Positions 1,895-19,343 of a stretch of 33,555 nucleotides of DNA are shown in pieces. Position numbers and translations under genes: made by a program. Under the pieces are notes generated by a model. The model searched no databases. It was not told the DNA's origin and saw nothing but the letters and a program-made list of their open reading frames with translations. Position 1 is the first letter of the stretch. Each line of letters opens with the position of its first letter. Source of the stretch: Armatimonadota bacterium (GTDB lineage: Bacteria; Sysuimicrobiota; Sysuimicrobiia; Sysuimicrobiales; Humicultoraceae); contig JACQHU010000019.1 in assembly GCA_016198805.1 (NCBI GenBank), positions 1 to 33,555 of the forward strand, read 5' to 3'.

Positions 1895-4201
1895 ATGACG
1901 GTTGCGGTGCTTTCCGGCTTTGTCCTTGCGCTGGCCGCGCCGTGGCTTGTGAGAGCCACGGGCAGGGCCGCAGGATGGGTCACCGCCCTCCTCCCGCTGG
2001 CACTGACGGTGTACTTCGGGAGCCTGCTCGGCCAGATCGGAGCAGGTGACGCTCTGAACGTCACGCATTCCTGGATCCCGGCCCTCGGCATGCAGTTCTC
2101 TCTCTATCTGGACGGGTTGGGTCTCCTGTTCGCGCTGCTGATCTGCGGGATCGGCACGCTGATCTTCATCTACTCGGGCGGATACCTGCCGAATGATCCG
2201 CACCTCGGCCGGTTCCTCAGCATGCTCCTGCTCTTCATGGGCGCCATGCTGGGCCTCGTCCTCGCCGATAATGTCATCGTGCTCTTCGTGTTCTGGGAAC
2301 TCACCAGCATCAGCTCCTACTTCCTGATCGGCTTCCAGCACTCCCGGCCCGAGGCCCGGGCCGCGGCGCTCCAGGCCCTGCTGGTCACAGGTGTCGGCGG
2401 CGTGGCGCTGTTGCTGGGAGTGCTCCTGTTGGGCCAGGTCGGCGGGAGCCTGGAACTCTCCACCCTCCTGGGTCGGGGAAACGAGATCCGCGCCCATCCC
2501 CTCTACCTCCCGATCCTGGTGCTGGTGCTGCTGGGCGCCTTCACGAAGTCCGCGCAGGTCCCGTTTCACTTCTGGCTCCCGGCCGCCATGGAAGCGCCGA
2601 CACCCGTCAGCGCCTACCTGCATTCCGCTACGATGGTCAAGGCCGGCGTGTATCTGCTGGCCAGAATGAGCCCGATCCTCGGTGGTACCGACCCGTGGGT
2701 GGCCCTTGTCACCACTGTGGGCGCCGTGACGATGCTGGCGGGCGGGACCCTCGCGCTGCTGCGCACAGACCTGAAGCAGATTCTCGCGTACACCACGGTC
2801 GCGGCGCTGGGCACCCTCACCATGCTGCTGGGCATGGGGACAGCCGATGCCGCCAGAGCCTGCATGACATTCCTGCTCGCCCACGCGTTCTACAAGGGCG
2901 CCCTCTTTCTGGGGGCCGGCAGCCTGGAGCACGGGGCCGGCTCCCGTGATGTGGATCATCTCGGCGGCCTGTGGCGGACGATGCCGCTCACCACCGCGGC
3001 CGCGGGCCTGGCCGCGCTGGCGCTGGCCGGATTCGGGCCCGTGTTGAGTTTCATCGGCAAAGAACTCCTGCTGGAAGCCGTGCTCGCACAGTCACCGACA
3101 CGGGCCCTGCTGGCTCCTGCAGTACTTGCCGGCTCAGCGCTGTCGGTCGCGGCGGCGGCGATCGTTGGCCTCCGCCCGTTCGCAGGCACGAGGCCCGATG
3201 AGCTGTCAGACGCCCAGGAGGCGCCCGCCAGCCTGTGGCTCGGGCCGGTCGTGCTGGCCGCGGGCGGCGTGGTCCTGGGCCTGCGGCCGGAGATCCTGGC
3301 CGAGCCGATCGTGACAGCGTCTGCCGCATCGGTGCTGACCCGGCGCGAGGTCGCGGACCTGGCCCTCTGGCATGGGCCGAACCCGGCCCTGGCGTTCAGC
3401 GGCGCGTCGCTGGTGCTCGGTCTGCTGGTCTATCGCGCCTGGCCCACGATCCGCCGGAGCGCTGCGGCCCGCACGTGGTGGCTGAGCTGGGGGGGGCCGT
3501 CCCGCTGGTATGAACTGGGGCTTCAGGCGCTTTCCTGGCTCGCGGAGAGTCAGACGCGGCTGCTGCAGAGCGGGTATCTGCGATTGTACCTGATCATGAT
3601 CCTGATCACCGCCAACGGGCTGGCCGCTTATGCGCTGCTGGCACGTGTCCGATGGCAGCCGATTGTGTTGCAGCCAGCCGTGCAGCTCCACGACGCGTTC
3701 ATCGGCGCTCTCATCTTGCTTGGAGCCCTGGCGGCGGCGGGGTCCGCGTCACGCCTCGGCGCGGTGGCCGCCCTGGGGGTCGTTGGCGCAGGCATCTCCC
3801 TGGTTTACATCTCGTTCGGGGCGCCGGATCTGGCGATGACGCAGTTCCTGGTCGAGGCCTTCACCGTGATCCTGCTGGTGCTGGCGTTCTATCACCTGCC
3901 CAGGTTCGCCCGGTTGTCGGGGCGGACCGCCCGGCTTCGCGACGTCGTTATCGCTGGCGTCTCAGGGACGCTGGTGGCGGCCCTGGTACTCCTGACCACC
4001 ACGGCCCGCAGGGACTCCAGGATTGCGGAGTACTTCGCCGAGCACAGCGTCGCGGCCGCGCACGGTCGAAACATCGTCAACGTCATCCTGGTGGACTTCC
4101 GCAGTCTCGATACGCTGGGCGAGATTACGGTCCTGGCGACGGCGGCCATTGGGGTGTACGTTCTGCTGCGCCTCCGGCCTGAGAAAGGAAGCACACCGTG
4201 A
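1895..4201 (+). CDS. mrpA: Mrp Na+/H+ antiporter subunit A
   Basis: [49 protein letters not shown] and C-terminal [23 protein letters not shown]; ATG 1895; 768 aa. Confidence 0.95.
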
Positions 4202-4614
4202 GATCGCTGATCCTGCGCACCGCCGCGCGCCTCCTCCTCCCATTGCTGCTGCTGTTCTCGGTCTTCCTGCTCATCCGCGGCCACAATGAGCCCGGGGGCG
4301 GCTTCGCGGCCGGTCTCGTCGCCTCCGCAGCCTTCGCGCTACACGCGTTTGCTGAGGGCCTCCCGCAGACGCGGCGGATGATCCGGGTCGATCCGATCTC
4401 GCTCCTTGGCGCCGGCCTGCTCGTGACAGCCGCCGGCGGGGTTGCCGGCGTGCTGGCCGGTCAGCCCTTTCTCACCGGCCAGTGGGTGTCGCTGGCACCG
4501 GTGGGTCTGGGGCACGTGGACATCGGAACGCCGGTGGTGTTTGATGTCGGCGTCTACCTCGTCGTGGTCGGGGCGGTCCTGACGATCATCTTCACGATCA
4601 TGGAGGAAGCCTGA
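4198..4614 (+). CDS. mrpB: Mrp antiporter subunit B
   Basis: [10 protein letters not shown] and [11 protein letters not shown] motifs; GTGA overlap with mrpA. Confidence 0.95.
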
Positions 4615-4615
4615 G

Positions 4616-4963
4616 ATGCCGCTGCTTCTGGCCGTCGTTATCGGAGGCCTCTACGCCACAGCCCTGTATCTCATCCTCCGGCGCAGCATCGTGAAGCTCC
4701 TCATCGGTCTGGCCCTGTTGACCAATGCGGCGAATCTGCTGATCTTTACCTCGGCGGGATTGACCCGTGCCACAGCCCCGATCGTCCCTCTGGGCAGCGA
4801 CCGCCCCCCTGCGCCCTTTGCCGATCCGCTGGCGCAGGCGATGATCCTGACCGCGATCGTCATCGGCTTCGGCGTGCTGGCGTTCATGGTCGTGCTCGTC
4901 CATCGCGCCGTCCAGGCCGTCGGGACCGACGACCTAGACGACTTGAAGGCGACCGATACATGA
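4616..4963 (+). CDS. mrpC: Mrp antiporter subunit C
   Basis: [17 protein letters not shown] motif; three TM segments. Confidence 0.95.
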
Positions 4964-6477
4964 ATCTGTTCCTGCTCGGAACGCTGCTGGTCCCGCTGCT
5001 GACGGGCATCGCGTGCCTCCTGGCCTGGCGCCGGCGGACGACTCAGCGCGGTTTGGGCCTGGCCGGGGCGACGGCGCACTTTGGCGCGACGCTCGGCCTG
5101 CTGTGGACGGTCGCCTCAGACGGTATTCAGACCGCCCAGATCGGCGCCTGGCCGGCACCCTTTGGCATCACGATCGTCGCGGATCTGTTCAGCGCGATCA
5201 TGGCCGTCGTGGCCGGCATGATGGGGCTGGCCGTCACCGTCTACTCGCTGGGGAGCATGGACGCCCGGCGCGAGGAGTACGGGTACTACCCGCTGTTCCA
5301 CGTGCTGCTGCTGGGCGTCAGCGGCGCGTTTCTCGCAGGGGATATTTTTAACCTGTATGTCTGGTTCGAAGTCATGCTCATTGCATCGTTCGCGCTGCTT
5401 GTGCTCGGCGGGGAACGAGCCCAGATCGAGGGAGCGATCAAGTACGTCACGCTGAACCTCATCTCGTCAGCCTTCTTCCTGACAGCGGTCGGCATTCTCT
5501 ATGGCATGACCGGGACGCTCAATATGGCCGACCTGGCCCGCGCGCTGAGCCGGACCGCGGCGCCCGGGTTGGTCACCACGGTCGGCCTGCTGTTCTTGGT
5601 CGCCTTTGGCATCAAGGCCGCGACGTTTCCGCTGTTCTTCTGGCTGCCTGCCTCCTATCACACGCCGCCGGTTGCCACCTCCGCCATCTTCGCGGGCCTG
5701 CTCACCAAGGTCGGGGTCTACGCGCTGATTCGGGTCTTCACGTTGCTGTTCGTGCAGGATCCGGGTTTCATCCACACGCTCATCCTGGTGATCGCGGGGC
5801 TGACGATGGCCACCGGTGTCCTGGGCGCCGTCGCCCAGAACGAGTTCCGGCGGATCCTGGCGTTCCACATTGTCAGCCAGATCGGCTACATGATCATGGG
5901 GCTGGGCCTGTTTACGCCGCTCGGCCTGGCGGGCTCGATCTTCTACATCACCCATCACATCATCGTGAAGACGAACCTCTTCCTCATCAGCGGAATCGCC
6001 TACCGCTTGCGTGGGACATACGTCCTGAAAGACCTGGGCGGGCTGTACCGGACGCAGCCCGCGCTCGCGCTGCTGTTCCTGGTGCCCGCGTTTTCCCTGG
6101 CCGGCGTTCCACCGCTCTCCGGGTTTGCAGCGAAGCTCTCCCTGGTCCAGGCCGGGCTCGCCGGACAGCAGTACGCCGTCGTGGCGACGGCTCTGGCCGT
6201 GGGCCTGCTGACCCTGTTCTCGATGACCAAAATCTGGGCCGAAGCCTTTTGGAAGGGCGACACCGGCGAATCGGCCGCCACGCCGCGTCCAGGGAGTGCC
6301 GCCGGAGTGCGGCCGCGGGGGCTGACGAGCATGTTCATGCCCGTCGTCGTGCTCGCGGCCGTGACGGTCGCCATCGGGCTCGCCGCGCAGCCGCTCTTCA
6401 CCCTGACGTGGCGCGCCGCCGAGCAGCTGCTCGACCCCACCGCCTACATCAACGCCGTGCTGGGGAGCCCCCGATGA
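4960..6477 (+). CDS. mrpD: Mrp antiporter subunit D
   Basis: [40 protein letters not shown] and [11 protein letters not shown] motifs. Confidence 0.95.
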
Positions 6478-7225: not shown

Positions 7226-7614
7226 CCGAATGGGTGACGGCGCTGCTGTTGCTCCTGGGCGGCGCATTCATCTTGCTGGCCGGCATCGGCATCCTTCGGA
7301 TGCCTGACGTGTACACGCGGATGCAGCCGGCCACGAAGGCCGCGACGCTCGGCGTTGGATGCCTGCTCCTGGCCGTCGCCGTGCATTTCGACGACCTGGG
7401 TATCCGGACGCGCGCGCTGGCGGCGATCGCCTTCGTGCTGCTCACGGCGCCGGTGGCGGCTCATATGATCGGCAGGGCCGCCTACATCGTCGGTGTCCCG
7501 CTGTGGGAAGGAACCATCGTAGACGAACTGCGAGGACAATACGACGTGCGGGCGGGGGTGCTGAGGAGCCGGGCCACGCGTGGCTCCGGGACCCCGGCGG
7601 CTGGGGGAGAATGA
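7222..7614 (+). CDS. mrpG: Mrp antiporter subunit G
   Basis: RMPDVYTRMQPATKAATLG and LTAPVAAHMIGRAAY motifs. Confidence 0.95.
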   Translation: MTEWVTALLLLLGGAFILLAGIGILRMPDVYTRMQPATKAATLGVGCLLLAVAVHFDDLGIRTRALAAIAFVLLTAPVAAHMIGRAAYIVGVPLWEGTIVDELRGQYDVRAGVLRSRATRGSGTPAAGGE

Positions 7615-7690
7615 GAAGGCAGGCCATGCTGGCTGTCAGGGCTTCTCTGGGGCGCTCCGTGCCTGAGCGTGCATCCCGGAGGGTGTTGCC

Positions 7691-8776
7691 ATGAGGTGGG
7701 CCTGGAAACTGGGGGAAGTCGTCGGCATCGCCGTCTATGTCCATGCCACGTTCCTGATTCTCATCGGGTGGATCGCGCTCATCTACTGGACCCAGGCGCG
7801 TGAGCTGGGCGCGGTGGTCGCAGGCGTCGGGTTCATCGTGGCGATCTTCGGCTGCGTGGTGCTCCACGAGTTGGGCCATGCCCTCATGGCCATGACCTAC
7901 GGGATCAAGACGCGTGATATCACCCTGTTGCCGATCGGCGGTGTGGCGCGGCTCGAGCGGATGCCCGACGAACCGGCGCAGGAGCTCTGGGTGGCGCTCG
8001 CCGGGCCTGCCGTCAATGTCGCCATCGCGCTGGTGCTGCTGGCCTGGATGCAGCTGACCGCCGGGCTGGAGCCGATCAGCCGCCTCACCATCACGCAGGG
8101 GCCCTTCCTGGAACGGCTGATGATCGTCAATATCTTCCTGGCCGCGTTCAACCTGCTCCCGGCGTTCCCCATGGACGGCGGGCGGGTCGTGCGCGCCCTG
8201 CTGGCGATGCGGATGGACTATACGCGGGCGACGCAGGTGGCCGCCGCCCTGGGGCAGGGCATGGCGCTCCTGTTCGGATTCCTGGGACTGCTCATCAACC
8301 CGTTCCTGCTGTTCATCGCGCTCTTCGTCTGGATCGGCGCCACCCAGGAGGCGAGCCTGGTGCAGATGAAGTCCGCCCTCAGCGGGATTCCGGTTGGCCG
8401 GGCGATGATCACGGAGTTCCGCGTGCTCGCTCCTGAGGATCTCCTGCGGCAGGCGATCGATCTGTTGCTGGCGGGGACCCAGCAGGATTTCCCGGTGCTC
8501 GAAGACGCGCGGGTCGTAGGCGTGCTGACGCGCAGCGACCTGCTGGTGGCCCTGGCGCAGCGCGGGCAAGAGGCACGCGTGGCCGATGTGATGCAGCGGG
8601 AGTTCATGGTCGCAGACCCCCACGAGATGCTGGAAGCGGCATTCATCCGGATGCAGGGCTGCGCGTGCCACACGCTGCCGGTGATCCGAGGGGGCCGGCT
8701 TGTCGGATTGATTACCATGGAAAACGTCGGCGAGTTCGTGGCGGTCCAGGCCGCGCTGGGTGCCGTAAAAGGCTGA
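7691..8776 (+). CDS. Site-2 protease (peptidase M50) with C-terminal CBS domain pair
   Basis: HELGH (HExxH), AGPAVN and FNLLPAFPMDGG motifs; two CBS-like repeats; GGAGG upstream. Confidence 0.93.
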   Translation: MRWAWKLGEVVGIAVYVHATFLILIGWIALIYWTQARELGAVVAGVGFIVAIFGCVVLHELGHALMAMTYGIKTRDITLLPIGGVARLERMPDEPAQELWVALAGPAVNVAIALVLLAWMQLTAGLEPISRLTITQGPFLERLMIVNIFLAAFNLLPAFPMDGGRVVRALLAMRMDYTRATQVAAALGQGMALLFGFLGLLINPFLLFIALFVWIGATQEASLVQMKSALSGIPVGRAMITEFRVLAPEDLLRQAIDLLLAGTQQDFPVLEDARVVGVLTRSDLLVALAQRGQEARVADVMQREFMVADPHEMLEAAFIRMQGCACHTLPVIRGGRLVGLITMENVGEFVAVQAALGAVKG

Positions 8777-8906: not shown

Positions 8907-10682
8907 TCAGAGCGGCCAGAACCACAGGATGAGCGGCACCGCCACCGCGACGATGACGACCTCAAGCGGCAGACCCACACGCCAGTAGTCGCCGAACTGG
9001 TAGCCACCCGGTCCCATCACCAGGGTGTTCGATTGATGCCCGATCGGCGTGAGAAACGCGGAGGAGGCACCGATCGCGACCGCCATGAGGAAGGGATCGA
9101 TCGACACGCCCATGCCGTGGGCGACGCCGATCGCAATGGGCGCCATCACTATGGCCGCGGCCGCATTGTTGACGAGATCCGAAAGGAACATGGTGCCCAC
9201 CAGGACGATCGTGAGCGTGGCCACGGGCGGCAGTTGCGCGGACAGGGCCAGCAGCGCGCCGGCGATGAGCCGGGCGCCGCCCGTGGTCTCCAGGGCCCGG
9301 CCGACCGGAATCATGGCGCCGAGCAGGACGATGATCGGCCAGTCGATGCTCTCGTAGAGCTCGCGAAGCGGGAGCAGCCCGACCAGCACCATAGCCAGGG
9401 CCGCCGTGGTGAAGGCGATCTGCACCGGCGCCAGCCCCGTGGCGGCGGCCGCCAGGGCCAGGCTGAAGATGCCCACCGCCGGCAGGAATCGGAGCGGCTG
9501 CCCGATCCGAAGCCCTCGCTCGGCCAGCGGCAGACATCCCAGCAGCGGCAGCACCTCGGCGAGCGCCTCCTCCCCGCCCTGGAGGAGCAGGACATCGCCG
9601 GCCCGGAAGCGGATATCCGACAGCCGCGCCTTGAGCCGCGCCCCCTGACGCGCCACAGCCAGCAGGTTCACGCCGTGGCGCCGGCGGAGGTTCAGGCTCC
9701 GCGCGGTCTTGCCCACGATGCGAGCGTCGAGCGTGACGACGGCCTCGACGATGGTGACTTCGTCCGAGCCGAGTGCGTCTTCTCCGAGCTGCTTGGCTCC
9801 AACCAGCTTCAGGCCGGTCTTGTCGATCAGCGCCTGCAGGTCTTCAGAGTCGGCCTCGATGACGAGGCCATCGCCCGCCCGCAGGAGTTCGGACCCGGAG
9901 GGCGCCGGGAACCGCCGTTCGCCGCGCACGAGGGCCACGACGGTGATCTCCGCGTCGTCCATCGCCTCGAGGTCCCGGATCGGCTGGTCCACGACCTTCG
10001 ACTCCGGCGGCACCCGGACCTCGGTGATGTAGCTCTCGATCTCGAAGAGCTCCTGGCGGGATGTCTTTCCCCTACGCCGCGGAACGAGCCGCCATCCCAC
10101 CAGCGCCATGAAGAGCACGCCAGCGACGGTGACCCCCAGGCCGACCGGCGTGAAGTCGAACATGCGAAACGGCTCGGCGCCGTCCCGCGCGCGGAAGGTG
10201 GCGATGATGATGTTCGGCGGCGTGCCGATGAGGGTGATCAACCCGCCGAGCAGTGAGCCGAAGGCCAGAGGCATGAGGAGAGCCGAGGGGGGGTTGTCGC
10301 TCCTACGCGCCAGCCGGATCGCGATGGGCATGAACAGGGCCAGTGCGCCCACATTGTTCATGAAGGCCGACGCCGCCGCGACCACGCCCGTCAGCGCCCC
10401 GACCTGGACAATGAGTCGATCGCCGATGCGTGACATCCAGTCAGCCACCACATGGACCGCGCCCGACGTGAAGAGGCCGCGGCTCACGACCAGCACCGCG
10501 GCCACCGTGATCACGGCCGGATGCCCGAACCCATCGAACGCCTCGCCCGGAGGCACGAGTCCCGTCACGGTGACCACCAGGAGGGCCAGGAGCGCGACGA
10601 TGTCGTATCGCCAGCGCCCGGTGATGAACAACACCAGCGACATGGCCAGGACGCCGAAGACGATGGCCTGCTCGGCCGTCAT
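8907..10682 (-). CDS. SLC13/DASS-like permease with two TrkA-C (RCK-C) domains
   Basis: SAFMNNVGA, TLIGTPPNII and TPIGHQSNTLVMGPGGYQFGDYWRVG motifs; central soluble TrkA-C repeats; GAGGAG RBS. Confidence 0.9.
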   Translation of the reverse strand: MTAEQAIVFGVLAMSLVLFITGRWRYDIVALLALLVVTVTGLVPPGEAFDGFGHPAVITVAAVLVVSRGLFTSGAVHVVADWMSRIGDRLIVQVGALTGVVAAASAFMNNVGALALFMPIAIRLARRSDNPPSALLMPLAFGSLLGGLITLIGTPPNIIIATFRARDGAEPFRMFDFTPVGLGVTVAGVLFMALVGWRLVPRRRGKTSRQELFEIESYITEVRVPPESKVVDQPIRDLEAMDDAEITVVALVRGERRFPAPSGSELLRAGDGLVIEADSEDLQALIDKTGLKLVGAKQLGEDALGSDEVTIVEAVVTLDARIVGKTARSLNLRRRHGVNLLAVARQGARLKARLSDIRFRAGDVLLLQGGEEALAEVLPLLGCLPLAERGLRIGQPLRFLPAVGIFSLALAAAATGLAPVQIAFTTAALAMVLVGLLPLRELYESIDWPIIVLLGAMIPVGRALETTGGARLIAGALLALSAQLPPVATLTIVLVGTMFLSDLVNNAAAAIVMAPIAIGVAHGMGVSIDPFLMAVAIGASSAFLTPIGHQSNTLVMGPGGYQFGDYWRVGLPLEVVIVAVAVPLILWFWPL

Positions 10683-10796: not shown

Positions 10797-12032
10797 TTAC
10801 ACGCCGAGAAGCGACGCATACAGCCGGAGCTCATCGGCAATCAACCGGGTCAGCAGGAATTGGCGGCGTACCAGCTCCCGCCCGCGCTTTCCCAGCTCCC
10901 TGGCCTCTTCAGGATGCTCCAGCAGCCACAGGATCCGGTCGGCGGCCTCTTCCACGGAGGCGACGAGAAAGCCCCCACCCTCACGCATCTGCATGGGGAT
11001 CCCACCGGCTCGCCCCGCCACCACGGGCGTGCCCTTCCAGAGCGCCTCGGAAATCACCAGGCCGAATCCCTCACGAATCGACTTCTGGATGACCACCTGC
11101 GAGAGGCGCTGGACCGCGTTGACCTCGATGTTGCCCACGCCGGTCAGGTTCGTGAAGATGTGGATCTCCCGGTCGGTCCGGGAGGCTTCCAGGATCTGGT
11201 GGTAGATGTCCCACCCTTCGGGATCGTCGAGCGCCATGGATCCCACCAGCGCGAGCTGCAACTTGGGAATCGCCTGCTTGACGCGCCGGTACGACTCAAT
11301 CACGCCCAGCGGGTCCTTCCAGGGGTCGAACCGCGAGACCTGAGTGACCAGAGGCCGGTCCACATCCACCCCAATCCACCGGAGCAGCCGCCGGGCAAAC
11401 TCCGGGGCGATCTCGATGTTCTTGGGACTCTCGGGGTCGATGGCGGGCGGGATCATCTCGATGCGATGGACCTGGCAGTCCGGCGGGACGAAGTCCTGGA
11501 GCGTGAAGACGGCGGCATCGTAGTCGCTCAGGTAGGGGCGCAGGAATCCCCACACCTGGGGGTTGGGCTCGGAGGTATCGATGTGACACCGCCAGATCCA
11601 CCTGGCCGCATTCTTTCCACGGAAATGGAGCAGGGCCAGCGGCTGAGGATCGTGGACCACGATCACATCATACGGTTCTTCCAGCAACTGCGCGTTTCTC
11701 GTGGAGTAGGTGAGATACGTCTCCTGCTCCGTCGTCGCGAGTTCGCGGGACGCTCCTTGCAGCCCGTTGTGGATCGTCTTGGTCACGCGGAAGAACGCCT
11801 CGTCCCCCGTGATCAGCTTCCAGTCGGCTTGGATTCCCAGGTCGCGCAACAGCGGGATCTGCGAACGGAGAATCTCGGCCACCCCTCCCCCGTACGGCGT
11901 GGCGTTGATGTGGAGGACGCGCGCTCCCCGGAGATCCTCGGCCTGCGCCCGCAGCGCCTCGACGACCTCGACACCCGCACTGGTGTTGTAGCTGTCGATG
12001 GATTGCGTGCCGACGTCAACGGATGCCAGCAT
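10797..12032 (-). CDS. treT: GT4 glycosyltransferase, TreT-like (trehalose glycosyltransferring synthase)
   Basis: [41 protein letters not shown] and [18 protein letters not shown] motifs. Confidence 0.85.
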
Positions 12033-12076
12033 GAAGCCCTTAAGGGATAGGAGGTGATCTCCGCGGCGCCGCCCGC

Positions 12077-12871
12077 CTACCTGCAGGGGACCCGCAGGGC
12101 AGACGAGCTGATGCCGATCCCCCAGGTGTCATCACTCATCCCGCCCCCGGCGAAGATGCCGGCGACCTGGCCGGAGCCGTTGAGCACCGGCGATCCGCTG
12201 TGCCCGGGCGCCGCCGCCCGATCATAGACGACCGTGAATACCGGGGTCCCGTCGGGCGCGCGGTTCACCTCCCGCACCGTCCCCGTAGCCGACCAGCGGC
12301 GAGGGATGGGGAGGCGCCCGAACCCCACGATGCGCACCCCATCCCCCTGGCGCGGGTCTGCGCCGAGGGTCAGGGGGAAGAACGACGGCATCGGCCCTTC
12401 GTGCTTTCTGGCGACGGTGATGAACTGACCGTCGGGGGCGCGTACGCCCCACTGTCCGAAGGGCACGTCAGGGAGGACGACTTTGATCTGCGCCACATCC
12501 CGCTCCAGGGGCACGCCTGCCGGTGCCGGCCGCGTGGGATCCTGCGTGAGCCGGCTCGCGCACACCACTTTGGCGGAAAAGAACGCGCCGTCCAGAATCG
12601 CCAGGAGCTGGAAGCGTGCTGGGTCTCGATGCGGGCGCCAGACGACGTGGCTGGTGGTCAGTGCCGTTCCCTCGGCGTCGGTGAAGAAGGCGGTGCCCGA
12701 ACTGAACTCGCGATACCCGCTGCCTTCCTGGCCGATGACCTCGAGGAGAAACACGCCGCGCTCGGCGGCCGTGGTCTCTTGCGCGGCGGCGTGCGGTCGA
12801 CCGACGAGGACAGCGATGGTGGCGGCCAGCGCCGCGCACATGACGACCACGCCGAAGCGACCGAGCGCCAT
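12077..12871 (-). CDS. Secreted trypsin-like (S1) serine protease
   Basis: Hydrophobic N-terminus ending in AAA|Q; triad motifs LTTSHVV, ERDVAQI and PGHSGSPVL; no PDZ domain. Start is 12871 or 12883. Confidence 0.8.
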
Positions 12872-12917
12872 CTGGCCGCCCACCTCCGTGATTGGTGTCT
12901 GTCTTCTTGACCCGGCG

Positions 12918-14192
12918 CTATCCGGCCTCTCGAATCCCGGCGGACCCGTCCCGTACCACGCGGGCGCCCAGGAGGGTCAGCTTCCCCTCCAGCCCCTCAT
13001 ACCCGCGGTCGAGGTTTTCGACCTTCGAGATCTCGGTCTCCCCCTCCGCCGCCAGGGCCGCGATGACCACGGCGGCCCCGCCGCGGATGTCCGGCGCCTC
13101 TACCGGAGCGCCGGAAAGGCGCGACGGCCCGTTGACGTGCACCGTTTCCCCTTCCACCCTGACGTCCGCGCCCATCCGCCGAAGTTCGTCGGTGTACGCG
13201 AACCGTGACTCGAAGACCGTCTCGCGGATCCTGGAGGTGCCGCGGGCCAGGGTCAGCATGGCGGCCATCTGCGGGTGCAGGTCGGTGGCGAAACCGGGAT
13301 AGGGCGCGGTGTCGACGTCGAGCGCCCGGATCTCGCCCGTCGCCCGCACGCGGACCCCGTCGGTGCCGGGCACCACTTCCAGCCCGGCTTCCTCCAGCTT
13401 CGTCAGCAGCGCGGTCACGTGCTCGGGGATCATCCCCTCGACCAGGACATCACCGCCGGTGGCGGCGCCGGCCAGCAGGTAGGTGCCGCCTTCATTGCGG
13501 TCCGGAACGATCGTGTACGTGCTGCCGTGGAGTTCGTCGGTGCCCTCGATCGTGATGGTATCGGTGCCGGCTCCCCGGATCCGGGCCCCCATGAGGTTGA
13601 GGAATACCGCGGTGTCGACGATCTCCGGCTCGCGGGCGGCATTCTGCAGCACCGTGGTTCCCTTCGCCATGCTGGCCGCCAGCATCATGTTGGTGGTGGT
13701 GCCGAAGCTGCTGCGGGGCACGTAGAACAGCCCCCCGCGCAGGCGGCGAGCCGCGGCCTTCACGAAGCCGTGCTCGGTGACCACCTTCGCGCCGAGTGCG
13801 GCAAAGCCCCGCAGGTGAAAGTCTACGGGCCGGGCCCCGATCGAGCATCCGCCCGGCAGCGGCACCTGCGCCCGGCCCATCCGCCCCAGCAGCACGCCCG
13901 CGGTGTAGAACGACGCCCGCATGCTGCGGCAGAGGTCGTACGGGGCCGCGTGATTCGTCAGCCCGCGCGCGTCGATGGTCAGGCGCCCGGGGACGAAGGC
14001 GATGCGCGCTCCCAGCGCTTCCAGGATCTCCACCAGGGTGGTGACGTCCCGGCAGTGCGGAACGTTTTCGAGGGTCGAGACGTCGGCAGCCAGCGCGGCA
14101 GCGGCGATGATGGCGAGCGAGCTGTTCTTCCCTCCGGCGACATTGACCGCGCCGCGCAGACGGCGGCCGCCTGTGATGCGTAACGTCTCCAC
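12918..14192 (-). CDS. murA: UDP-N-acetylglucosamine 1-carboxyvinyltransferase (MurA/MurZ family)
   Basis: GGKNS, MRAS, LPGGCSIGARP (catalytic Cys), NAAREPEI, YPGFATD and LDRGYE motifs; GTG start at 14192 after AGGAGG. Confidence 0.95.
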   Translation of the reverse strand: METLRITGGRRLRGAVNVAGGKNSSLAIIAAAALAADVSTLENVPHCRDVTTLVEILEALGARIAFVPGRLTIDARGLTNHAAPYDLCRSMRASFYTAGVLLGRMGRAQVPLPGGCSIGARPVDFHLRGFAALGAKVVTEHGFVKAAARRLRGGLFYVPRSSFGTTTNMMLAASMAKGTTVLQNAAREPEIVDTAVFLNLMGARIRGAGTDTITIEGTDELHGSTYTIVPDRNEGGTYLLAGAATGGDVLVEGMIPEHVTALLTKLEEAGLEVVPGTDGVRVRATGEIRALDVDTAPYPGFATDLHPQMAAMLTLARGTSRIRETVFESRFAYTDELRRMGADVRVEGETVHVNGPSRLSGAPVEAPDIRGGAAVVIAALAAEGETEISKVENLDRGYEGLEGKLTLLGARVVRDGSAGIREAG

Positions 14193-14226
14193 CGAGTCCC
14201 TCCTGCGACGAAACGTGTGACTGCTG

Positions 14227-14499
14227 CTACGATGTGGCCGCGCGCAGCCGGTTCTCCATGTAGGTCCGGACCAGCTCCTCCAGGAGGAGGATCCGGTCGA
14301 CCTGACGGATCGCCTTCCGCGCGTCGCCGTGACTCGTGATATACGTGGGATCCCCTGACAGGAGGTACCCGACGATCTGCTCCACGGGGTTGTAGCCCCG
14401 CTCTTCCAATGCCCGGTACACGTCGAGCAGGATGTCCTGCACGCCGCCGGCGGTGAGATCACCGCGCCGGAAGACCCCGGTGCGTTCCCGTTCCTCCAT
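14227..14499 (-). CDS. ireB: IreB/ReoM family regulatory phosphoprotein (UPF0297)
   Basis: [35 protein letters not shown]...R..LLEELV..Y signature; 90 aa; ATG 14499 after GGAGG; Thr at residue 7. Confidence 0.93.
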
Positions 14500-14579
14500 G
14501 ACCGACACCTCCGATCCCACCGGCCCTTTCTGCGCCGCGCTGGCGGCTCTTCCGGCAGGACGCCATGCGAGACGAGCCC

Positions 14580-14656
14580 TGGTGGGCCCGCCTGGCTTCG
14601 ATCCAGGAACCTGCGCCTTATGAGGGCGCTGCTCTCACCACTTGAGCTACGGGCCC
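14580..14656 (-). tRNA. tRNA with CAT anticodon, most likely tRNA-Ile2 (lysidine type); elongator Met not excluded
   Basis: GGGCCCG TA GCTC AAGTGGTGA GAGC A GCGCC CTCATAA GGCGC AGGTT CCTGG ATCGAAG CCAGG CGGGCCC A CCA; all stems pair. G1-C72 and absence of the three G-C anticodon pairs exclude fMet. Confidence 0.9.
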
Positions 14657-14664
14657 GCGCGACG

Positions 14665-14673
14665 ATTATAGCA
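14665..14673 (-). promoter_or_regulatory. Consensus extended -10 sigma70/sigmaA promoter (TGnTATAAT) for the tRNA(CAT) unit
   Basis: Minus strand TGCTATAAT ends 8 nt before the mature tRNA 5' end and overlaps the truA TAA stop. Confidence 0.8.
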
Positions 14674-15448
14674 TCACAGGGCCTTCGCCACCCCGTGGGC
14701 GGTCTGCGGCGGGATCATAGACGATCCGCATCAGGTACAGCCCGTGGGCCGGGGCCGGCGGGCCGGCCCGTTGAGTGTCACGGGACCCCAGGATGGCTGG
14801 AATGGCGTCGGGCGCCAGCGCCCCGCGGCCGATCTGAAGCAGCGTCCCCACCATGCGGCGCGCCATCTGCCTGAGGAACCGGTTGGCGGCCACGGTGAAG
14901 AGGATCAGGTCGCCTCGGCGCTCAATAGTCACGGCGGCCAGCGAGCAGATCGTGGAGGCCGTCGCGGTGCCACTCACGCGGAAGGCCGCGAAGTCGTGTC
15001 GGCCTTCCAGATGGGCTGCCGCGGCCCGCATCGCTTCCAGATCCAGCGGGCCAGGCACGTGGTGCGCGTAGCCGCGCAGCAGGGCCGACGGTCTGGGACG
15101 GGCCAGCACCGCGTAGCGGTAGATCCGCAGCCGCGCGTCGCGCCGGGCGTGGAACGTGGCCGCGGCCTCGCACACCTCGCGGACCACGATGTCGGGAGGC
15201 AGGAGCGCGTTGAGTCCGTCGCGGATCCGCTCGGCGGCGAGGCCACTCTCGGTCGTCAGATGAGCCACCTGGCCCAGCGCGTGGACCCCCGCATCGGTGC
15301 GGCCGGCGCCCACCACGCGGTGAGGCGTCTGCAACAGCCGGGCGGCCGCCTCCTCCAGCGCCGCCTGGATCGATGGGACGTCCGGCTGGCGCTGCCAGCC
15401 GGCGTAGCGCCCCCCATCGTACTCGATCACCAGTTGCAGCGTGCGCAT
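14666..15448 (-). CDS. truA: tRNA pseudouridine(38-40) synthase
   Basis: YDGGRYAGWQRQ, GAGRTDAGVHA, FLRQMARRMVG and APAHGLYL motifs. Confidence 0.95.
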   Translation of the reverse strand: MRTLQLVIEYDGGRYAGWQRQPDVPSIQAALEEAAARLLQTPHRVVGAGRTDAGVHALGQVAHLTTESGLAAERIRDGLNALLPPDIVVREVCEAAATFHARRDARLRIYRYAVLARPRPSALLRGYAHHVPGPLDLEAMRAAAAHLEGRHDFAAFRVSGTATASTICSLAAVTIERRGDLILFTVAANRFLRQMARRMVGTLLQIGRGALAPDAIPAILGSRDTQRAGPPAPAHGLYLMRIVYDPAADRPRGGEGPVML

Positions 15449-15475
15449 GCCCGATTCCCGCCGCGCGGTTCGACG

Positions 15476-16285
15476 CTACCGCACCGACACCAGCAGCGCC
15501 GATGCCGCGACCACCAGCACCCCCGCCACCGCGTCGCCGAGTCCCCACCGGAGTTCTTTCATGCGGGTCCGGGGCGCGCTGCTGCTGTAACAGCGGGCTT
15601 CCATCGCCAGGGCCAGCTCCTCAGACCGCCGGATCGCGCTCAACAGCAGGGGCACCAGGACCGGGACCAGGGCCTGCGCGCGGCGGACGATGTTGCCCTG
15701 TCCGAACTCGGCGCCGCGCGCCGTCTGCGCCTTCATGATCCGCTCGGTCTCTTCGAGCAACGTGGGGATGAACCGCAGCGCGATGGTCATCATCATCGCG
15801 ATCTCGTGGCCGGGGAGGCCCACACGCCGCAGGGGCCGCAGCAGCCACTCGAGGCCATCCGCAAGTTCGACCGAGGAGGTGGTAAAGGTCAGCAGGGAGG
15901 TGATGGTGACCAGCAGGAGCAGGCGCGCCCCGACGAACAGGCCGGTGCGCAGCCCCTCCTCGGTGGCGACCAGAGGTCCTAGCACGAACAGCGTCCGCGC
16001 CTCGCTTCCGCCGCTGCCAAAGAAGGCGTTCAGCACGACGGTGAGCAGGAGCAAGAAGATGACCGGTCGCAATCCGCGCAGCGCGTACCCCAGGGGGATC
16101 TGCCCGAGCACCAGCAGCGCCAGCGAGGCGACAGCAAACAGGCCCAGCCCGGCCATCGCCCTCAACAGGAAGAGCACGACCGCCAGGGCCATGGTGGCCA
16201 GAATCTTCGTCCGCGGGTCGAGCCGGTGCAGCGGCGAATTTCGCGGCAAGTACTGTCCGACCGGCGCGTACTTAACGAGGTCCAC
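15476..16285 (-). CDS. ecfT: ECF transporter transmembrane component T
   Basis: LHRLDPRTK, IALRFIPTL, AQTARG and AMEARCY (the two XRX motifs). Confidence 0.93.
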   Translation of the reverse strand: MDLVKYAPVGQYLPRNSPLHRLDPRTKILATMALAVVLFLLRAMAGLGLFAVASLALLVLGQIPLGYALRGLRPVIFLLLLTVVLNAFFGSGGSEARTLFVLGPLVATEEGLRTGLFVGARLLLLVTITSLLTFTTSSVELADGLEWLLRPLRRVGLPGHEIAMMMTIALRFIPTLLEETERIMKAQTARGAEFGQGNIVRRAQALVPVLVPLLLSAIRRSEELALAMEARCYSSSAPRTRMKELRWGLGDAVAGVLVVAASALLVSVR

Positions 16286-17144
16286 GGTCCTGCCCTCGGA
16301 GCGCCGCGACGATCGCGGCGCGGGCGTCCTCCACGGTCAGCGCGTCGGCCACCCGAAGCCCGCGGCACTGCAGCAGCCGCACCAGCCGCGCGGCCTCCGG
16401 GAGCCCGAGGCCGATCCGGTGGAGATCTTCCTCGTGCGCAAACACCTCCCCCGGCGATCCCTCCAGGACGATCCGGCCCTCGTGCAGAACGATCACCCGC
16501 CGCGCAAGGCGGGCGACCTCTTCCATGCCGTGCGTGACGAGCACGATGGTCTGGCCCTGGCGGTGCAGGGCCTGGATCCGCGCCAGAAGTTCCTCCCGGC
16601 CGCGGGGATCAAGCCCGGCGGTCGGCTCGTCCAGAACCAGAACCCCGGGGCGCATCGCCAGGACGCCAGCCAGGGCGACCCGTCGCATCTCGCCGCCCGA
16701 CAACGAGAAGGGGGACCGGTCGCCAAATCCCGCGGGATCCAGGCCGACCTGCCGGAGCGCCTCGTCGACCCGCTGCGCGATCTCCTCTTCGGAGCATCCC
16801 AGGTTCTTGGGCCCGTAGGCGACGTCGCGCCGCACGGTCTCCTCGAAGAGCTGGTACTCGGCGAACTGAAAGGCCAGCCCGACCTGCCGGCGCGCACGCC
16901 GGCGGTCGGCGCGGGGGCCCCAGAGGTCCTGGCCCAGCACCCGAACCACCCCGGCGGTCGGGCGGAGCAGCCCGGCGCACAGCTGGATCAGCGTGGATTT
17001 GCCCGAGCCGGTGGGACCGATGAGCGCCAGCAACTCTCCCGGCTGCACCTCGAGCGACACGCCGCGCAGCGCGACAGCCGCCATGGGCGTGCCGCGCAGA
17101 TACGTGTAGTGCACCTGCTCGCAGGCGATGAGCGGATCAGGCAT
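16272..17144 (-). CDS. ecfA2: ECF transporter ATPase A2
   Basis: GPTGSGKST, FQFAEYQLF, LSGGEMRRVA and LDEPTAGLDP motifs; ATG 17144. Confidence 0.92.
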   Translation of the reverse strand: MPDPLIACEQVHYTYLRGTPMAAVALRGVSLEVQPGELLALIGPTGSGKSTLIQLCAGLLRPTAGVVRVLGQDLWGPRADRRRARRQVGLAFQFAEYQLFEETVRRDVAYGPKNLGCSEEEIAQRVDEALRQVGLDPAGFGDRSPFSLSGGEMRRVALAGVLAMRPGVLVLDEPTAGLDPRGREELLARIQALHRQGQTIVLVTHGMEEVARLARRVIVLHEGRIVLEGSPGEVFAHEEDLHRIGLGLPEAARLVRLLQCRGLRVADALTVEDARAAIVAALRGQDRGPR

Positions 17145-18003
17145 GCGAGGCTCCGTCCCTCCCGGCCAGCGCGGCCAGAGCACTCACGAGCGCCTCGACG
17201 GTGAACAGCCCCGGCGGGAGCGGGACGCCGTCCTGCCGCAGCCAGTGCGCCAGGCGGGCCATCGGCGGCGCGTGGATCCGCGCAAGCGGCGACCGGCTCA
17301 ACTGATCGAACACCTGCCCGGTGGGGCCGTCCAGGACGATCCGGCCGGCGTCCAGCGCGACGATCCGCTCGGCGTCGGCCAGGTCCTCCAGCGTATGCGA
17401 GATGGCCACAATGGTCATCCCCTCGTCGCGATGAAGCGTGCGGACCGTCGCCAGCACCTCGGCCCGCCCCTCGGGGTCGAGCATCGTGGTGGCCTCGTCG
17501 AGGATCAGACATTCGGGATGCATGGCGAGAACGCCGGCGATGGCCACGCGCTGTTTCTGGCCGCCGGACAGCAGGTGCGGCGCATGCCGGCGGTAGGCGG
17601 TCATCCCCACGGTTGCCAGCGCCCGATCGACCCGCTCCCGGATCAGGGGGGACGGCAGCCCCAGGTTTTCCGGCCCGAAGGCCACGTCCTCATCCACGAC
17701 GGTCGCCACCAGCTGGTTGTCAGGATTCTGGAAGACCATCCCCACACGCCGGCGGATGGCAAGCGTGGCCGACCGGTCGCGGGTGTCCTGCCCGCCCACG
17801 ATCACGCGGCCGGACGCGGGCAGCAACAGCGCGTTGAAATGCTTGGCCAGCGTCGACTTGCCGGACCCATTCCCGCCGACGATCCCGACGTACTCGCCGC
17901 GGCCAATGGACAGCGACAGGCCGTCGAGGGCGACGACGGCCTGTGGCGTATGGGGGTGGTACGTATACCGGAGGTCGGTGACCTCGATGAAGGGTTGGCG
18001 CAC
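17137..18003 (-). CDS. ecfA1: ECF transporter ATPase A1
   Basis: GGNGSGKST, FQNPDNQ, LSGGQKQRVA and LDEATTMLDP motifs. Confidence 0.92.
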   Translation of the reverse strand: MRQPFIEVTDLRYTYHPHTPQAVVALDGLSLSIGRGEYVGIVGGNGSGKSTLAKHFNALLLPASGRVIVGGQDTRDRSATLAIRRRVGMVFQNPDNQLVATVVDEDVAFGPENLGLPSPLIRERVDRALATVGMTAYRRHAPHLLSGGQKQRVAIAGVLAMHPECLILDEATTMLDPEGRAEVLATVRTLHRDEGMTIVAISHTLEDLADAERIVALDAGRIVLDGPTGQVFDQLSRSPLARIHAPPMARLAHWLRQDGVPLPPGLFTVEALVSALAALAGRDGASHA

Positions 18004-18013
18004 CCCGTGGGGC

Positions 18014-18367
18014 CTACTTCACCAGCTCGACCAGCGCCATCTCCGCCCCGTCCCCGCGGCGCGTCCGGGTCTTGAGGATGCGGGTATACCCCCCGCGGCC
18101 GGGCCGATAGCGGGGGACGACGTCTGCGAACAGCCGCCGGAGCACCCGGGGGTCGGTCAGGAACCGGCGCACCTGGCGGCGGGCCTGCAGGTCTCCGCGC
18201 AGGGCGGTGGAGATGACACCGTCGGCGATCTTCTTGGTCTCCTTGGCCCTGGCATCGGTGGTCTCGATGCGATCATGCAGGATGAGCGCGCTGACCAGGT
18301 CCCGGAACAGCGCGCGGCGCTCACCCGTATCCCGGCCCAACTTGCGGCGCTTGGCCCCCAGTCCCAT
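18014..18367 (-). CDS. rplQ: 50S ribosomal protein L17
   Basis: RKLGR, IETTDARAKE and GGYTRILK..RRGDGAEMA motifs; follows rpoA. Confidence 0.95.
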   Translation of the reverse strand: MGLGAKRRKLGRDTGERRALFRDLVSALILHDRIETTDARAKETKKIADGVISTALRGDLQARRQVRRFLTDPRVLRRLFADVVPRYRPGRGGYTRILKTRTRRGDGAEMALVELVK

Positions 18368-18380
18368 CGGTCTCGCTCCC

Positions 18381-19343
18381 TTAGGCCTGGTCCGGCTGCC
18401 GCAGACTCAGGCCGTGCGCGGTGAGCTTTTCCTTGACCTCATCCAGCGACTTCCGCCCAAAGTTTTTGACGGCCACGACCTCTTCTTCGGTCTTCTTGAT
18501 CAGGTCGCCGACGGTGTGGATGCCCGCGCGCTTGAGGCAGTTGTAGGGTCGCACGGAGAGGTCAAGTTCCTCGATCGGCATGGCCATGGCGCGGGCGCGG
18601 TCGGGATCCTCGGTGACGCCGAACGGCGCCCCGGCCCCCGCCTCGTCGGCGATGCCGGCGAACAGCCGGAAGTGGTCGATGAGCAGGCGTGAGGCCTCCT
18701 GCAGCGCCTCCTCCGGCCGGATCGACCCGTCGGTCCAGATCTCCAGCACCAGGCGATCCAGGTCGGTGGCGTGCCCCACCCGCGTGTCTTCAACAATGTA
18801 GCTCACCTTGCGGATCGGCGAGAAGATCGAGTCGATGGGAATGACGCCGATCACGTGCTCGCTGCGGCGATGACGCTCCGCCGGGACGTACCCTTTCCCT
18901 CGCTCGACCACGATCTCCATCGCCAGCCGGGCGTCCTTGCGGTCCAGCGTGGCGAGATGCAGGTTGGGGTTGATGATCTCGACCTCGGGATCCTCCTGGA
19001 TATCGGCCGCGGTCACGTCCTTCTTCCCCTTCATGTCCAGCCGCAGCAGCTTGGGCTTGTCGGTGTAGAGCCGCAGCGTCAGCTCCTTGAGGTTCAGGAC
19101 GATCTGCGTCACATCTTCCACCACGCCCGGAATGGTCGAAAACTCATGCAGGACGCCGTCGATCTTCACCGAGGTGACGGCCGCCCCCGAAATCGACGAG
19201 AGCAGCACCCGGCGCAGGGCATTCCCCAGCGTCACGCCGAAGCCGTGATCCAGCGGCTCAACGACGAACTTCCCGTAGGTGTCTGAGAGTTCCGCGTACT
19301 CGACCTTGGGGGTCGGGGTTTCCCACAACGTGCCAATACTCAT
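18381..19343 (-). CDS. rpoA: RNA polymerase alpha subunit
   Basis: EPLDHGFGVTLGNALRRVLLS, HEFSTIPGV and the alphaCTD LSVRPYNCLKR..NFGRKS. Confidence 0.97.
   Translation of the reverse strand: MSIGTLWETPTPKVEYAELSDTYGKFVVEPLDHGFGVTLGNALRRVLLSSISGAAVTSVKIDGVLHEFSTIPGVVEDVTQIVLNLKELTLRLYTDKPKLLRLDMKGKKDVTAADIQEDPEVEIINPNLHLATLDRKDARLAMEIVVERGKGYVPAERHRRSEHVIGVIPIDSIFSPIRKVSYIVEDTRVGHATDLDRLVLEIWTDGSIRPEEALQEASRLLIDHFRLFAGIADEAGAGAPFGVTEDPDRARAMAMPIEELDLSVRPYNCLKRAGIHTVGDLIKKTEEEVVAVKNFGRKSLDEVKEKLTAHGLSLRQPDQA

Follow-up and report, generated by a model that had tools for sequence, protein, structure and literature searches.

In the 33,555-nt stretch of DNA analyzed here (hereafter the window), from contig JACQHU010000019.1 of assembly GCA_016198805.1, a metagenome-assembled genome (MAG) of the phylum Candidatus Sysuimicrobiota, the gene for an IreB-family phosphoprotein (ReoM in Listeria) lies directly upstream of murA, which encodes UDP-GlcNAc 1-carboxyvinyltransferase. 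This gene order is conserved throughout the phylum and recurs in Limnochordia, a class of the Bacillota, and functional coupling of the pair is likely. The coordinates of all features discussed are collected in Table 1.

Both family assignments are secure. The IreB product matches Pfam PF06135 over profile positions 2-78 of 78 (E 1e-30, 106.2 bits against a cut-off of 25) and the NCBIfam equivalog NF003997 (UPF0297; 109.2 bits against 91), while the MurA product matches the equivalog TIGR01072 over profile positions 1-415 with 502.8 bits against a cut-off of 392.7. The ATG start of ireB is backed by 90-aa database homologues spanning 99-100% of the query. Profiles and coordinates agree with the original prediction that a 90-aa IreB/ReoM protein is encoded 34 nt ahead of murA on the same strand; that strand, left unnamed in the prediction, is the minus strand. 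The predicted equivalence of its Thr7 with Thr7 of Listeria ReoM holds in the alignment to PDB entry 6tif. This threonine does not vary in either of two alignments, of 17 and 40 IreB sequences, and the loop S48-G49-D50-P51 is invariant in a group of alignments that includes the same two sets, so the switch and the binding loop have been kept. In MurA, Cys116 of the LPGGCSIG motif aligns with the cysteine of the Listeria and B. anthracis enzymes, which is the catalytic residue.

A profile search of the contigs found this IreB as the sole match in the source genome. One true copy of murA was present in each of five Sysuimicrobiota genomes checked, the source included; the second MurA-profile match of the source genome reached merely 52.8 bits, which is the level of aroA. 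A 514-aa open reading frame (ORF) at 12918..14462 was rejected as a separate gene, being an upstream in-frame extension of murA. GGAGG-type ribosome-binding sites precede both genes, as claimed at the outset, and a terminator scan of positions 11900-15600 likewise bore out the claim that no terminator separates them: its two hits overlap one another at 12754-12769, within the gene that follows murA. Over the same interval, a scan for sigma-70-type promoters gave none, a result of little weight in a genome of such high G+C. An Rfam search of 12000-15600 recovered a tRNA alone, three other matches lying far under their gathering scores. Judging from this layout, ireB and murA very probably form one transcript.

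To assess how widely the arrangement is kept, the pair was mapped in relatives of the source genome. By tblastn, murA directly follows ireB in 30 of 30 loci, comprising the source and 29 relatives from five families. Across the 94 species genomes that GTDB assigns to the phylum, all in a single order, ireB was detected in 81, with one match each, and murA, at E up to 1e-60, in 78. Among the 81 ireB-bearing genomes, 78 place murA immediately downstream of ireB, on one contig and one strand, and the two profile matches are 12-115 nt apart. These counts include two linked genomes flagged as unpublished (G008 and G018), without which the figure is 76 of 79. Among the three exceptions, the start of murA is severed by a contig end in two (G022 and G004), and the third (G054) has a partial IreB match only. 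All 13 genomes lacking an ireB match also lack a murA match, although some are rated 93-97% complete, which fits the loss of one shared contig from the bins. The spacers between called ORFs measure 2-69 nt in the relatives and contain a Shine-Dalgarno motif and no T-tract. The adjacency of ireB and murA is thus far beyond chance, and the operon-like layout that had been predicted from a single locus is conserved in relatives. The flanking genes vary between families while the pair stays, which identifies the ireB-murA pair itself as the conserved unit. The genes truA, ecfT and tRNA-Met upstream of ireB are kept only in the family labeled f1 and a few other relatives. The tRNA-Met lies ahead of ireB in f1 relatives and in two more distant ones and is missing from the other families; the protease gene that follows murA in the window gave no tblastn match in the 4-kb flanks of the relatives' loci L045-L050.

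Gene order elsewhere in the genome indicates where ireB came from. A context survey covered the best 80 of 599 confirmed candidates retrieved with an IreB alignment query, drawn from 4 of the 64 parts of the collection. Seven of these loci were Sysuimicrobiota-like, and murA was downstream in all seven. The remaining 73 belonged to Bacillota: alaS, ruvX, DUF1292 or mltG stood beside ireB in 47, no neighbor was detectable with the queries used in 24, murA lay 2.8 kb upstream in one, and in one further locus (L063) it lay directly downstream. The statement that the Bacillota gene usually occupies an alaS-reoM-ruvX context therefore agrees with this sample. In the source genome the alaS-ruvX-DUF1292-mltG string is intact but contains no ireB, alaS and ruvX being 4 nt apart, and ruvX is located away from ireB in all five Sysuimicrobiota genomes examined. 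To judge from these neighborhoods, ireB moved out of the ancestral alaS-ruvX slot in Sysuimicrobiota.

Fusions of IreB with MurA were also sought among longer proteins; none of the nine matches carried MurA, which is weak evidence of absence, and six of them carried RuvX. IreB and RuvX are joined in metagenomic proteins of 212-326 aa, one of which contains DUF1292 as well. They represent true fusions or else read-through in gene calling across the canonical neighbors ireB and ruvX.

The source MAG (G000) comprises 1.49 Mb in 207 contigs and is 78% complete; its relatives range from 1.5 to 5.3 Mb. The suspicion that the organism lies outside the Bacillota proved correct. The closest IreBs in named public records, at 74-81% identity and with the same gene order, include that of Candidatus Fervidifonticultor octavus, a genus that NCBI places in the family Humicultoraceae of Candidatus Sysuimicrobiota (CSP1-3); many other close homologues were deposited under the label 'Armatimonadota bacterium'. 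The publication naming the phylum recognizes one class with one order within Terrabacteria, and its main text contains neither 'peptidoglycan' nor 'cell wall' (PMC11604079). Genes for BamA (Omp85) and LpxC were found in all five Sysuimicrobiota genomes examined, the source included, which makes a lipid A-containing outer membrane likely in this phylum. Sysuimicrobiota would in that respect probably resemble the Limnochordia with which they share the ireB-murA cassette. The LpxC and BamA genes are about 8 kb or less apart in each of the five genomes (contig C105, 7707-15848, in the source).

The single Bacillota locus with murA directly downstream of ireB led to an order of Limnochordia, represented by genome G094, in which this linkage is present in 14 of 14 genomes (15 loci, two of them in G094). 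In 13 of the 14 genomes alaS is followed by another ireB. A linked murA accompanied by an unlinked one is the rule in this order, and G094 has three murA genes. The third ireB-murA pair of G094 (L180) was dropped as a true triplication, since another genome, G101 (L174), encodes the identical MurA and the pair may come from bin contamination. Across the class, ireB was found in 94 of 95 genomes, 64 of which have two or more IreB matches. The linked pair, its two matches 11-121 nt apart, occurs in at least 56 of the 95; the true number may be higher, since 11 IreB and 52 MurA matches lay beyond those considered. The class is identified by public records, in which proteins identical to those of several of its genomes are entered as 'Limnochordia bacterium' or under a Limnochordaceae species. 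The single-contig Limnochordia genomes G177, G182 and G183 encode one ireB each, beside ruvX and without linkage to murA, and the extra ireB paralogue of the class exists only beside murA. A survey for murA adjacency had been proposed together with the original prediction, and its outcome is twofold: the linkage runs throughout Sysuimicrobiota, and it is not peculiar to that lineage.

The phylogeny of MurA sets the linked enzymes apart. A careful IQ-TREE tree was built from 45 MurAs, leaving out two truncated or long-branch sequences and 13 near-duplicates from the order of G094. In this tree the linked MurAs, 15 from Sysuimicrobiota and 12 from at least three lineages of Limnochordia, form one clade with support of 100/99 (ultrafast bootstrap/Shimodaira-Hasegawa-like approximate likelihood ratio test, SH-aLRT), within which each group is monophyletic (100/100 for Sysuimicrobiota and 99/94 for Limnochordia). 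The unlinked Limnochordia MurAs fall with the MurAA-type references (99/89), and MurAB-type references form a separate clade at 100/99. The MurAA reference was set by the B. spizizenii context DUF1779-murA-spoIID and the MurAB reference by fbaA-tal-murA-glpX, contexts that we take to mark murAA and murAB on the basis of the B. subtilis gene order. In two quick trees the linked clade was nearest to the MurAB-type references (SH-aLRT 90 and 87). Three clades of Firmicutes MurA have been described, MurAA, MurAB and MurAC, and Limnochordia, 'the third diderm lineage', encode mainly MurAC (Chan et al. 2022, PMC9600426). The linked clade is probably MurAC, an assignment we infer from its membership and from its separation from the MurAA-type and MurAB-type references.

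The IreB trees tell less. The linked Limnochordia copies form a clade at 96/82, and those of Sysuimicrobiota group weakly at 87/15. Monophyly of all linked IreBs was not rejected by the approximately unbiased test (p 0.756 on the quick tree, 0.405 on the careful one). With monophyly neither shown nor rejected, the IreB tree was dropped as an arbiter between one and two origins of the linkage. Taken together, the data would fit a single origin of the ireB-murA cassette, by vertical descent or by transfer alike, and fall short of proof.

What is known of IreB in other bacteria suggests how the pair might work. In Listeria and B. subtilis, unphosphorylated ReoM promotes degradation of MurA by ClpCP together with ReoY, and the kinase PrkA phosphorylates Thr7 (PMC7286690). 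The Listeria MurA substitutions N197D and S262L abolish ReoM binding and let the enzyme escape degradation (PMC8959180). Work on E. faecalis shows a direct effect on enzyme activity: MurAB is bound and inhibited by IreB in its unphosphorylated form (Mascari et al. 2025, PMC12077105). The substitution D50A in IreB abolishes this binding, and an AlphaFold3 model of two IreB and two MurAB chains places D50 at the interface (PMC12077105). Among Sysuimicrobiota, each of four relatives of the source encodes one PASTA kinase, built of a Pkinase and three PASTA domains. A ClpC-like, Clp_N-bearing ATPase was found in all five genomes (with the architecture Clp_N x2, AAA, UVR, AAA_2 in G007, and cut to its N-terminal part by a contig end in the source MAG), as was ClpP. 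ReoY (UPF0302, PF08864) was detected in none of the five at E up to 0.1, four of them being 96-100% complete, under conditions that detected the B. subtilis control. At the position of Listeria N197, MurAA-type and MurAB-type references and the unlinked Limnochordia MurAs mostly have asparagine, and the linked clade alone has valine (Sysuimicrobiota) or isoleucine (Limnochordia). The window MurA has V196 at this position and A261 at that of S262. A clade-specific change at a proven ReoM-contact residue would be compatible with a co-adapted interface, though it is no proof of one.

Within the coupling inferred above, phosphorylation-relieved direct inhibition of MurA by IreB made from the same mRNA is on balance probable, by analogy with the systems just described. 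The two-gene unit would then encode a regulator and its direct target. The unphosphorylated IreB dimer would bind MurA through the Asp50 loop and hold it back; a PASTA Ser/Thr kinase would phosphorylate Thr7 when wall synthesis must rise, and MurA would be released, both steps being extrapolated from studies of Listeria, B. subtilis and E. faecalis. A single mRNA would fix the ratio of IreB to MurA, so that newly made MurA would by default be held in reserve and depend on kinase signaling. Because the genomes encode ClpC and ClpP but gave no match to ReoY, direct inhibition, as of MurAB in E. faecalis, is favored over ReoY-assisted delivery to ClpCP.

The Listeria-type route is nevertheless the best-surviving alternative. 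Here unphosphorylated IreB would hand MurA to ClpCP, with an unrecognized protein replacing ReoY or with ReoY dispensable. It draws on the best-documented role of ReoM/IreB (PMC7286690, PMC12077105) and on a protease whose two components are encoded in every genome examined, but the same genomes lack a recognizable ReoY, the linked MurA falls outside the MurAA-type clade, the one that is proteolyzed in Firmicutes, and the positions through which Listeria MurA escapes degradation differ in it. We consider this route unlikely. Accordingly, the kinase-ReoM-ClpCP-MurA checkpoint put forward in the original prediction stands in part: ClpC and ClpP are present and relatives of the source carry the PASTA kinase, but ReoY is missing and the 78%-complete MAG has yielded no Ser/Thr kinase.

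Several observations weigh against direct inhibition from a shared transcript. No Pkinase domain was found in the source MAG at its level of completeness, and its one weak PASTA match (24.5 bits) lies outside any kinase. Co-transcription is read from the spacing of the genes and the absence of a terminator-like site. The residues equivalent to N197 and S262 are not conserved, which may point to a changed interface or to its absence. When the MurAs of the three single-contig Limnochordia genomes were added to the tree, one of them, L201 (G183:C1:1515642-1518880), fell inside the linked clade without an adjacent ireB, so the clade can exist without the linkage; this may reflect secondary loss of the linked ireB paralogue or the ancestral state. 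In the IreB tree the two linked groups join at 54/82 with one unlinked sequence included, and with about 90 columns that tree is poorly resolved. Finally, gene order is inherited by kin, and the phylum-wide count therefore stands for few independent events.

Some of these points would also suit an adjacency without regulatory meaning, in which ireB landed by murA once and was inherited there, with IreB acting on other targets or in trans. Sysuimicrobiota are one order, so their 78 of 81 may reflect one event, a linked-clade MurA without its ireB exists, and IreB acts in trans in all species studied. This explanation is nonetheless improbable, as the pair persists while both flanks change between families, its spacers stay within 2-69 nt, and a second, deeply diverged lineage keeps the order and has its extra ireB nowhere else; moreover, IreB and MurA are partners by published experiment (PMC12077105, PMC8959180). 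A positive action of IreB on the linked clade, as a stabilizer or assembly partner needed for activity, would spare a peptidoglycan-requiring organism the apparent cost of permanently co-making an inhibitor of its sole MurA and could suit an interface residue that differs from both MurAA and MurAB, but it has no precedent in the literature examined, and the residues used for inhibition and release in the studied species, Thr7 and D50, are retained, leaving it little credence.

A broader reading is offered tentatively, as a possibility we would not bet on. The ireB-murA(C) pair may be an ancient, co-inherited and possibly laterally moved cassette of outer-membrane-bearing Terrabacteria, in which a dedicated IreB paralogue co-adapted with its own MurA clade, the change from asparagine to valine or isoleucine being one trace of this. 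Limnochordia might then run two insulated pairs side by side, both answering to one PASTA kinase, in which the alaS-linked IreB is matched to the MurAA-like enzyme and its murA-linked paralogue to MurAC, and Sysuimicrobiota would have kept the cassette only. If this were true, the entire peptidoglycan input of Sysuimicrobiota would hang on one phospho-switch encoded in cis.

Table 1. Features of the ireB-murA locus and its surroundings in the window.
Feature	Position	Strand	Details
rpoA	18381-19343	minus	Upstream string
rplQ	18014-18367	minus	Upstream string
ecfA, ecfA' (energy-coupling factor (ECF) transporter ATPase genes)	17137-18003 and 16272-17183	minus	
ecfT	15476-16285	minus	
truA	14666-15448	minus	TIGR00071, 186 bits; closes the rpoA-rplQ-ecfA-ecfA'-ecfT-truA string ahead of the pair
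tRNA-Met (CAT)	14580..14656	minus	ARAGORN; Rfam tRNA, 62.9 bits; between truA and ireB
Shine-Dalgarno GGAGG of ireB	14508..14512	minus	8 nt ahead of the ATG; read from the sequence
ireB/reoM	14227..14499	minus	ATG start, TAG stop, 90 aa; IreB-family phosphoprotein; Thr7 and SGDP loop with Asp50
ireB-murA spacer	14193..14226	minus	34 nt; contains GGAGGG; without terminator-like hairpin or T-tract
Shine-Dalgarno GGAGGG of murA	14198..14203	minus	5 nt ahead of the GTG; read from the sequence
murA, UDP-GlcNAc 1-carboxyvinyltransferase	12918..14192	minus	GTG start, 424 aa; Cys116 in LPGGCSIG; member of the ireB-linked clade
Trypsin-like serine protease gene	12077..12883	minus	PF13365, E 1e-12; starts 34 nt after murA
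TreT-like glycosyltransferase gene	10797-12032	minus	
CitMHS transporter gene	8907-10682	minus	

The string of genes from rpoA to truA upstream of the pair follows what we take to be the Bacillus order, where truA is presumably followed by rplM-rpsI. In the window, a tRNA gene and then ireB-murA lie downstream of truA. Pfam gave nothing for two long ORFs on the minus strand, at 332-2959 (875 aa) and 7442-8671 (409 aa). Long ORFs on the plus strand overlap the first, with Mrp/Mnh antiporter genes just downstream (4198-6477, plus strand), and the second is overlapped by a plus-strand M50 peptidase/CBS gene (7691-8776). Both are likely shadow ORFs of a high-GC genome.

The arrangement can be set beside four described systems. 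With the ReoM (Lmo1503)/PrkA/ReoY/ClpCP system of Listeria and its B. subtilis counterpart (YrzL, YpiB) it has in common the PF06135 family, Thr7, MurA as the partner enzyme, ClpC and ClpP and, in relatives, the PASTA kinase. It differs in that the gene lies ahead of murA and not between alaS and ruvX, that ReoY was not found, that a single MurA of a different clade is present with V and A in place of N197 and S262, and that the host belongs to a non-Bacillota phylum with BamA and LpxC genes. The IreB-IreK/MurAB system of E. faecalis shares the IreB family and the Asp50 loop, and its mechanism needs no ReoY (PMC12077105). Its genes, however, lie apart and a single IreB acts on two MurA paralogues, whereas Sysuimicrobiota have one IreB and one MurA in one probable operon and Limnochordia two IreBs for two MurAs. 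MurAC, with which the linked clade is probably identical, is the main MurA of Limnochordia, and the linked clade consists of Limnochordia and Sysuimicrobiota MurAs that stand apart from the MurAA and MurAB references; the paper describing MurAC deals with Firmicutes only, and neither IreB nor ReoM occurs in it (PMC9600426). In mycobacteria, CwlM is likewise a MurA-binding substrate of a Ser/Thr kinase, PknB, through which the first committed step of peptidoglycan synthesis is tuned (PMC12723410), but it belongs to a family unrelated to IreB and acts as an activator. In the literature searched, subscription-only papers and supplements aside, no description of ireB-murA gene linkage was found, which suggests that a dedicated regulator-enzyme pair of the known IreB-MurA partnership has not been described before.

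The partnership of IreB/ReoM and MurA had rested on genetic and biochemical work in four or five Firmicutes. The operon-like arrangement conserved in two deep lineages provides independent evolutionary evidence for a direct functional link and extends the system beyond the Bacillota to lineages with BamA and LpxC genes and probably an outer membrane, in which PASTA-kinase control of MurA is not known to have been studied. The third MurA clade, MurAC, about which little is known, thereby gains a candidate regulator. Limnochordia, with two IreBs and two MurAs per cell, represent a natural experiment in paralogue specificity. The minimal version in Sysuimicrobiota, with one IreB, one MurA and no ReoY, may serve as a clean system for asking whether direct inhibition is the ancestral mode of MurA control by IreB.

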